Shown here piece by piece: positions 17,891 through 18,332 of a stretch of 19,151 nt of DNA. Within the stretch, counting starts at the first letter, position 1. Each line of letters opens with the position of its first letter. This DNA is from an uncultured archaeon (GTDB lineage: Archaea; Asgardarchaeota; Lokiarchaeia; Sigyniarchaeales; SOKP01): the NCBI GenBank assembly GCA_964525635.1, contig CAZGJX010000061.1, positions 6,297-25,447 of the forward strand. Direction: 5' to 3'. The notes beneath the pieces were generated by a model that was not told the DNA's origin, searched no databases, and saw nothing but the letters and a program-made list of their open reading frames with translations. The position numbers and the translations under genes were made by a program.

Positions 17891-18048
17891 AATAATTTAA
17901 AATAATGAGTATTAGGTTTTTTCATTAATTAAGATTAGTTTATAAATTTTTATTTTAAAATTCTAGAAAGAGTAGTTAATTCTACTCGAATAATAGTTAG
18001 TAATAATTTAACTATATTCATTATTTTATATAATCTTTTATTTTATGA

Positions 18049-18180
18049 GTGAACTACCACAAACTTAAGTTATGACTTCCCACGAGTACGCAACCGCTTC
18101 TACTACGGCTTGGCCTGTTTATCGTAGAAAACCATTCTCGTGTAATTAGAATGATTCCTCGTCCACAGAGGATTCATGCG
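18049..18180 (-). ncRNA. Putative omegaRNA/reRNA (TnpB guide-RNA scaffold)-like structured RNA at the element's right end
   Basis: A GC-richer island with several stems: 18157-60/18168-71, 18133-38/18148-53 and the right-end hairpin at 18057-18075. There is long-range complementarity (18081-86/18137-42, and TGAAT 18176-72 with GTTCA 18054-50). The segment ends in TTCAC. Confidence 0.5.
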
Positions 18181-18332
18181 ATAAGAAATTGATTATTTTA
18201 TAATATTCAATTTCCTTATTAATCATAAGTACGGAATTATTAAAAAATTATGAGATTCTAAGAATTTTCAGATTTATTTTAAAGCTCAATTCATACAATT
18301 CCTAAAGGAAGGGGTTTTCTTGAGCAATCATG
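18049..18332 (-). mobile_element. Non-autonomous IS200/IS605-family element (MITE/PATE-like) with no tnpA or tnpB ORF
   Basis: On the minus strand, the left end reads TTTAT|CATGATTGCTCAAGAAAACCCCTTCCTTTAGGAATTGTATGAATTGAGC and the right end reads GAAGTCATAACTTAAGTTTGTGGTAGTTCAC. Both are imperfect subterminal hairpins of the IS200/IS605 type. No terminal inverted repeats or target-site duplication are seen. The exact left boundary is inferred. Confidence 0.75.

Follow-up and report, generated by a model that had tools for sequence, protein, structure and literature searches.

The window, by which we mean the whole 19,151-nt stretch of DNA analysed here, contains an intergenic region bounded by two minus-strand genes, a TSP3-repeat protein gene ending at 18400 and an uncharacterised 595-aa ORF starting at 17890. 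Within this region, positions 18192-18049 have a GC content of 42 % compared to 28 % window-wide and 15-23 % in the flanking non-coding DNA. The preliminary description of this DNA read this GC-richer minus-strand segment as a stand-alone guide RNA cassette. The segment is real and is a homologue of an omegaRNA scaffold, but it forms only the right half of a larger unit at 18332-18049 (Table 1). As had been claimed, this copy is without tnpB, and the 284 nt contain zero ORFs of at least 60 aa in the ORF list of the window. An Rfam scan of the window gave no match at the gathering score, a permissive Rfam scan of 17850-18450 gave chance-level matches only (E of at least 0.2), and a tRNA/tmRNA scan of the window found none. 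The TSP3 gene itself (window 18400-19151) encodes thrombospondin type 3 calcium-binding repeats of the bacterial type, has internal DNA repeats of ~69 nt and has paralogous repeat genes on many contigs. After its stop, a run of 14 T at ~18389-18376 (minus strand) looks like an archaeal oligo-T terminator.

Table 1 Positions of the gene-less element, its parts and its flanking motifs in window coordinates
Feature	Position	Strand	Basis
Gene-less element, left end fused to right end (284 nt)	18049..18332	minus	Full copies elsewhere in the genome, common junction
TTTAT target motif (TAM), host sequence outside the element	18333..18337	minus	Start of conservation, empty site
Left-end subterminal palindrome and the conserved ATGAATTGAG motif after it	18285..18312	minus	Homology to DNA upstream of tnpB on C1, C19, C50
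A/T-rich TATA-like stretch TTTTTTAATAA, proposed promoter	18237..18247	minus	Alignment with CTTATATTTAATGG
Hairpin H0, GGAAATTGA (18215-18207) with TCAATTTCT (18192-18184)	18184..18215	minus	Covariation, MFE fold
OmegaRNA scaffold core, last ~38 tnpB codons plus 3' region to the right-end boundary	18049..18192	minus	tnpB homology, covariation
Closing stem	18183-18177 with 18092-18089 and 18083-18081	minus	Compatible with H0
Helix CCTC/GAGG	18171-18168 with 18160-18157	minus	Covarying
Helix containing CATTCT/AGAATG	18156-18148 with 18138-18130	minus	Covarying
Helix around AGCCG/CGGTT	18110-18105 with 18097-18093	minus	Covarying
Right-end hairpin	18076-18070 with 18062-18056	minus	Covarying
Guide position TCATAAAATAAAAGATTATA	18029..18048	minus	Length assumed

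We searched the window's own genome (G000, 4.45 Mb in 245 contigs) and three congeners (G001, G002 and G003) for further copies. About a dozen copies with 72-86 % identity are found in G000, and longer queries extend the repeated unit to window ~18337-18048. Around six of them are full copies, full-length on C42, C4, C50 and C170 (77-81 % identity) and partial or variant on C9 and C153. Only the right half, from 18189/18192 to 18049, is present on C50 (a second copy), C19, C1, C36 and C31. A covariance model of the scaffold built here (R1) yields 15 matches in G000 and 27, at least 130 (G002) and 29 in the congeners. With this model the window copy reaches 143.9 bits, one of the lowest scores of the full copies. 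BLASTN finds the element in all three congeners and hardly at all in 37 further relatives.

Alignment of the copies with their flanks reveals abrupt boundaries on both sides. On the right, GTAGTTCAC (18049) is common to all copies, which are unrelated from the next base, and on the left the similarity starts at TTTATCATGATT. The left end begins with CATGATT and is not an inverted copy of the right end, and comparison of the ends in the copy alignment finds no terminal inverted repeats in the gene-less element. The left-end palindrome has the family consensus CCTCCC-TTTA-GGGAGG and is weakened to TTCC-TTTA-GGAA in the window copy. The scaffold stops exactly at the transposon right end, where GTTCAC at 18054-18049 is followed by TCATAAAATAAAAGATTATA in an A/T-rich flank, as previously described. 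With IS605-like near-terminal palindromes at both ends, dispersed copies and no ORF of transposase size, the element has the sequence features of a PATE.

The copies that carry only the right half point to the origin of the element. A Pfam-profile search of G000 shows that the right-half copies on C50, C1 and C19 are preceded at ~35-40 nt by matches to the zinc-ribbon and RuvC domains of TnpB. In these copies the right half occupies the 3' end of a tnpB gene (C50:1343-1499, C1:93778-93919 and C19:42110-42253). The tnpB ORFs on C1 and C50 (434 aa from the first Met) enter the repeat by ~105 nt and stop with TAG, at a position where the window copy reads TGG (18082-18080). The left half, from 18332 to ~18225, is homologous to the DNA upstream of tnpB on the same three contigs. 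This upstream DNA contains a subterminal palindrome (CCCTCC-TTTT-AGGGAGG) and the motif GATGAATTGAG, and ~35 nt ahead of the start codon of tnpB it has a TATA-like stretch rich in A and T. Both the right-end hairpin (18076-18056) and the left-end palindrome of the family are homologous to the ends of these tnpB elements. Since the right half corresponds to the 3' end of tnpB plus the right end and the left half to the left end, the window element consists of the joined ends of a tnpB element from which the gene has been deleted.

The same arrangement is found outside this genome. Metagenome-assembled genomes of Promethearchaeota (Asgard) encode relatives of this TnpB at 60-70 % identity, which places the host in that phylum, and at those loci too a scaffold homologue lies exactly on the 3' end of tnpB. 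Comparison of the scaffold with the 3' ends of genomic tnpB genes had been proposed as a check. Its outcome is positive. Three right-half copies are located on such ends in G000, and both here and in other Promethearchaeota the homologue of the scaffold overlaps an intact tnpB gene at its 3' end.

The segment 18332-18049 is thus a protein-less, non-autonomous derivative of a tnpB-only (IS1341-like) element of the IS200/IS605 family, a PATE in the sense of Dyall-Smith et al. 2011. An internal deletion removed nearly all of tnpB. The surviving parts are the left end, which includes the subterminal palindrome as well as the promoter and start region of tnpB, then the 5' strand of a hairpin located in the zinc-finger codons of the parent, and finally the last ~140 nt, which comprise the structured omegaRNA scaffold and the right-end hairpin. 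We are nearly certain that the 284-nt element is PATE-like and bears an omegaRNA scaffold. Seventeen non-redundant gene-less copies from the four genomes share one common junction, which indicates that the deleted form itself has spread. The earlier proposal that the element lost its proteins is right in that there is no tnpB here, but what remains is a member of a mobile family of fused left and right ends that spread after the internal deletion. A small conserved ORF across the junction (ATG at 18227) was considered and rejected, other copies having stops there.

An IS607-type origin is not favoured, given the subterminal hairpins, the lack of duplication, the TTTAT target and the position of the left end directly upstream of tnpB in the tnpB-only relatives. 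G000 does contain serine recombinase (Resolvase) genes at C1:35030-35413, C51:18716-19114 and C22:20464-20859, those on C51 and C22 being ~2.2 kb from other TnpB matches, which suggests that IS607-type elements are present in this genome.

To define the target we looked at the left boundary, where about 30 copies have TTTAT preceded by unrelated DNA, and mapped the flanks of congener copies to G000 in search of empty sites. When the congener copy L044 is removed and TTTAT is kept, the joined flanks align gap-free to an uninterrupted site on C12 of G000 in which TTTAT occurs once. From this empty site it follows that TTTAT is the target (TAM), that the element inserts 3' of it, that the target is not duplicated and that the insertion is polymorphic between species. 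TTTAT had been guessed as the TAM beforehand, and the empty site bears this out. A congener copy was used because no clean empty site was found for the window copy in the orthologous region of the three congeners. In all three the downstream gene has an orthologue, but the similarity does not extend beyond window ~17969, and the gene on the upstream side is a different one.

In the orthologous intergenic region of G003, upstream of the 595-aa gene (C462 ~2640-2700, L121), there is a different hairpin followed by GTAGTTCAA on the other strand, which has the appearance of a right end belonging to a distinct, though related, IS605-family element that inserted close to this position. The flanks of the G002 copy L046 map to C28:10309-11187 of G000, ~880 nt apart, so that G000 carries another insert where G002 has the gene-less element.

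The guides of 12 strong copies are all different from the first base after GTAGTTCAC, and the only exact genomic match of each is its own flank. The window copy has, as previously noted, copy-specific sequence at the guide position after its right end. The element thus has what the guide side of an omegaRNA calls for, namely copy-specific DNA 3' of the right end and a TTTAT that marks the left boundary and recurs in the empty site.

Taken alone, the 146-nt stretch that had been singled out earlier folds no better than its shuffles (z -0.97), and we therefore judged the structure comparatively. The structure was drawn by hand and scored on an alignment of 49 sequences, using slid partners and 500 shuffles as controls. 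In the 49 sequences 93.9-94.3 % of cells are paired compared to 31-48 % in the slid controls, 21-22 pairs are changed on both sides and 0 of 500 shuffles reach the observed values, controls that overstate the significance because the sequences are related. The 21 gene-less copies alone have 94.5 % of cells paired and both-sided changes in 10 pairs. The compensatory changes are clear in four helices (18171-18157, 18156-18130, 18110-18093 and 18076-18056). The first three lie within what is coding sequence in the parent, 40-120 nt from the end, which argues for an RNA fold and not solely for a DNA hairpin bound by TnpA. The share of the covariation that falls in the right-end hairpin could instead serve the recognition of single-stranded DNA by TnpA.

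Building a covariance model from genomic copies was another of the proposed checks, and the helices covary both in the 49 sequences and in the gene-less subset. The stems CCTC/GAGG and CATTCT/AGAATG exist and lie within covarying helices. The stem at AGCCG/CGGTT is real as well but contains a G·G mismatch in the window copy (helix 18110-18093), which also has a 2-nt deletion in the right-end hairpin. Despite ~20 % divergence the window copy forms 31 of the 33 modelled pairs, with both-sided changes that keep pairs in the second helix (U-A for C-G) and in the right-end hairpin (A-U for G-C).

Two further pairings of the preliminary description do not hold up, and a third is unsupported. The long-range match CACGAG/CTCGTG is found in the window copy only, other copies reading CAATGG/CTCGTA, and the alternative CTACG/CGTAG, absent from the L090 group, has uncompensated losses in several copies. 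The pseudoknot TGAAT/GTTCA is not confirmed: TGAAY/GTTCA is 88.6 % paired in the 49 sequences with zero pairs changed on both sides, and the pair G18-C158 is broken in 14 of the 49 without compensation. A long closing stem given by RNAalifold (columns 6-12 with 124-130) was dropped in its full form since it overlaps the covarying hairpin H0, with which a shorter closing stem (columns 10-16 with 102, 116-118 and 124-126) is compatible.

Hairpin H0 adds a 5' domain to this core. In copies linked to tnpB, the zinc-finger codons include GGAAATCR, which is complementary to YGATTTCY ~75 nt further downstream, where the scaffold starts. In the gene-less copies the two strands still pair, as GGAAATTGA/TCAATTTCT or, in one subfamily, as GGAAATTC/GAATTTCT, but lie only ~14 nt apart. 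Across 36 sequences H0 is 93.8 % paired compared to 38-59 % when slid, and compensation is seen at one position (CG in 22, UA in 12) and at the next (AU in 14, GC in 7, CG in 4). The MFE fold of 18220-18049 includes H0 and beats all 200 shuffles (z -3.05).

These observations bear on where transcription of the RNA would start. A TATA box ATTATAAA had been proposed at 18204-18197 on the minus strand. Its letters are present but they are not conserved, other copies reading TTACAGCT, CTATAATA, CTATAGTA or ATACTGTT, and they fall in the 14-nt loop of H0 (18206-18193). The proposed RNA start near 18178 is not supported either, since an RNA that includes H0 must begin upstream of 18215. Further upstream, TTTTTTAATAA aligns with CTTATATTTAATGG, ~35 nt before the tnpB ATG on C1 and C50. 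Based on this position and on its A/T content in a genome of 28 % GC, we infer that the best candidate for the RNA promoter is the former tnpB promoter TTTTTTAATAA at 18247-18237.

A gene-less element whose compatible TnpB is encoded elsewhere in the genome requires action in trans. Whether the lineage has a TnpB sharing this scaffold was a further point raised beforehand, and G000 contains two intact cognate tnpB genes, on C1 and C50. The C1 protein (P0001) has the domains HTH_OrfB_IS605, OrfB_IS605 and Cas12f1-like TNB and aligns end to end with ISDra2 TnpB (E 1e-15). The clade formed by this protein and its relatives (L060-L097) is without the canonical RuvC-II glutamate, reading IIVGKL or IIVGDL, and keeps the RuvC-I aspartate (FDLGI), the RuvC-III aspartate (IDRDLNSA) and a glutamate positioned six residues ahead of the first CxxC. 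RuvC-I reads DLG in this clade and not DPG. The placement of the glutamate matches the 'alternative E' arrangement defined in PMC10711439 and otherwise discussed for Fanzor-like TnpBs. A nuclease-dead TnpB was considered because the RuvC-II glutamate is missing and was rejected because the clade conserves the glutamate before the zinc finger. Judging from these residues, the cognate TnpB is probably an active nuclease.

The Y1 transposase TnpA (PF01797) was not found in the 245 contigs of G000 nor in G001, and is present in G002 and G003. In G002 it lies within an IS605 element with tnpA and tnpB, the left-end hairpin of which resembles both end hairpins of the family. G002, which has this TnpA, also has by far the most scaffold copies, a suggestive combination that fits mobilisation by TnpA in trans. 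Many of the scaffold matches in G002 are located exactly at contig ends and its Y1 tnpA (L125) is intact; the element appears to have undergone a burst in this genome, fragmenting the assembly. With no Y1 TnpA in G000 and copies that are only 72-86 % alike, the family may be immobile and decaying there, and these observations fit a family that is now static in G000.

We propose the following mechanism. The promoter that once served tnpB in the left end would drive transcription from near 18220 and yield an RNA with ~170 nt of scaffold that continues past the right end into flanking DNA. This RNA would be bound in trans by a cognate TnpB, of which the genome has two intact ones (C1, C50), and would guide it to TTTAT followed by TCATAAAATAAAAG, which is the empty donor site of the element itself. 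Cleavage and recombination would then reverse the excision, as in the homing model of Meers et al. 2023. For the whole statement, PATE identity together with homing, we lean towards acceptance with modest confidence. That the window copy itself still makes an RNA that is loaded onto TnpB has in our view an even chance.

The main competitor to homing is that the element is an inert fossil, a decaying relic that makes no functional RNA and has inherited its fold from a functional parent. The failure to find TnpA in the 245 contigs of G000 and the divergence of the copies agree with this, as do the low score of the window copy, its weakened left-end palindrome and its small defects; the element is also missing from the orthologous locus of three congeners, hence it has no conserved host role at this place. 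On the other hand, a relic does not readily explain 31 of 33 pairs kept at ~20 % divergence, nor the both-sided changes by which the window copy preserves pairs in its second helix and right-end hairpin. Fold and H0 alike are retained by the gene-less lineage overall, and the two cognate tnpB genes in G000 are intact. We consider the fossil unlikely, while giving it more weight than any other alternative. A lineage of gene-less copies selected for the RNA fold is also conceivable, a natural 'mini-omegaRNA' that retained its long-range 5' hairpin with a trimmed loop. It would persist in genomes without TnpA and, in place of homing of the parent element, either benefit the host by adding guides to its TnpB or hyperparasitise TnpB; we regard this as improbable.

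Still less probable is the original version, in which the cassette is self-contained, a TATA box at 18204-18197 gives a 145-150-nt RNA from ~18178 and the dispersed copies form a distributed guide repertoire. The putative box ATTATAAA is at a plausible distance from 18178, the guides of all copies differ and stand-alone omegaRNAs are said to widen targeting (PMC10691335). The box is however unconserved and enclosed in the loop of the covarying H0, A/T-rich octamers are expected by chance in flanks of 15-23 % GC, and a start at 18178 would truncate the 5' strand of the closing stem (18183-18177). Moreover, each guide is the flank of its own element, as insertion alone predicts, and it is simpler to suppose that a guide targets the empty donor site of its own element. 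The distributed repertoire is not a new idea either, having been published for stand-alone omegaRNAs (PMC10691335, PMC10055086). Last, a guide domesticated by the host, whose RNA would lead TnpB to regulate or cleave a host gene in place of homing, could draw on a TTTAT-flanked site in an 823-aa sensor histidine-kinase gene (C125:1930-1950, L128) that matches guide positions 1-17 with one mismatch, but we find it very hard to credit, given ~0.07 such sites expected by chance for an A/T-rich guide, a mismatch (position 3) close to the TAM, an insertion that is missing at the orthologous locus of the congeners and a clade of TnpBs with the full set of catalytic residues, unlike known domesticated forms.

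Homing by a TnpB acting in trans is the reading we prefer, and it changes no concept, since stand-alone omegaRNAs acting in trans were known before. The value of the locus is that of a cleanly delimited Asgard PATE bearing an omegaRNA, whose TAM, boundaries, fold and cognate TnpB can be given from sequence alone, and which helps the annotation of intergenic repeats in Promethearchaeota genomes. The deletion is also a natural experiment, in which the core helices and a 5' hairpin with its loop shortened from ~75 to ~14 nt survive the loss of the gene. This may provide a hint for minimising the guide scaffolds of 'alternative E' TnpBs.

Comparison with known systems places the element within an already described kind, the stand-alone omegaRNA or PATE, of which it is a well-supported example and not a new system; at the level of its sequence it has the properties that define these categories. 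PATEs that encode an omegaRNA and need TnpB in trans are known from Geobacillus stearothermophilus (Meers et al. 2023, PMC10055086), and stand-alone omegaRNAs occur in genomes that also have effector-containing loci and work in trans (Altae-Tran et al., PMC10691335). Like these, our element is gene-less and has IS200/IS605-type ends, a scaffold and a guide position in the right flank. It differs in its Asgard archaeal host, in a cognate TnpB with an 'alternative glutamate' RuvC and in a deletion that kept the long-range 5' hairpin and shortened its loop. In addition no TnpA was found in the assembly.

Dyall-Smith et al. 2011 (PMC3119063) defined PATEs in an archaeon and showed that they arise when IS605-type elements lose their core. 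The Haloquadratum walsbyi PATEs share with the window family their archaeal host, near-terminal palindromes, the lack of terminal inverted repeats and of target duplication, a length too short for a transposase and the loss of an IS605-type (IS1341/TnpB) core, and in both cases copies have moved even though an intact TnpA is rare or absent. [quoted passage not shown] That study predates omegaRNA and makes no claim of an RNA, whereas the tnpB tail retained in the window family is a covarying fold.

The ISDra2 TnpB-omegaRNA complex (8H1J, 8EXA) likewise has a scaffold that overlaps tnpB at its 3' end and extends no further than the right end, and a T-rich 5-nt TAM located 5' of the left end, and its protein aligns over the full length. 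In contrast, the two RNAs have no detectable sequence similarity, the canonical RuvC-II glutamate is replaced in our clade (IIVGKL) and the pseudoknot is not confirmed in the window family.
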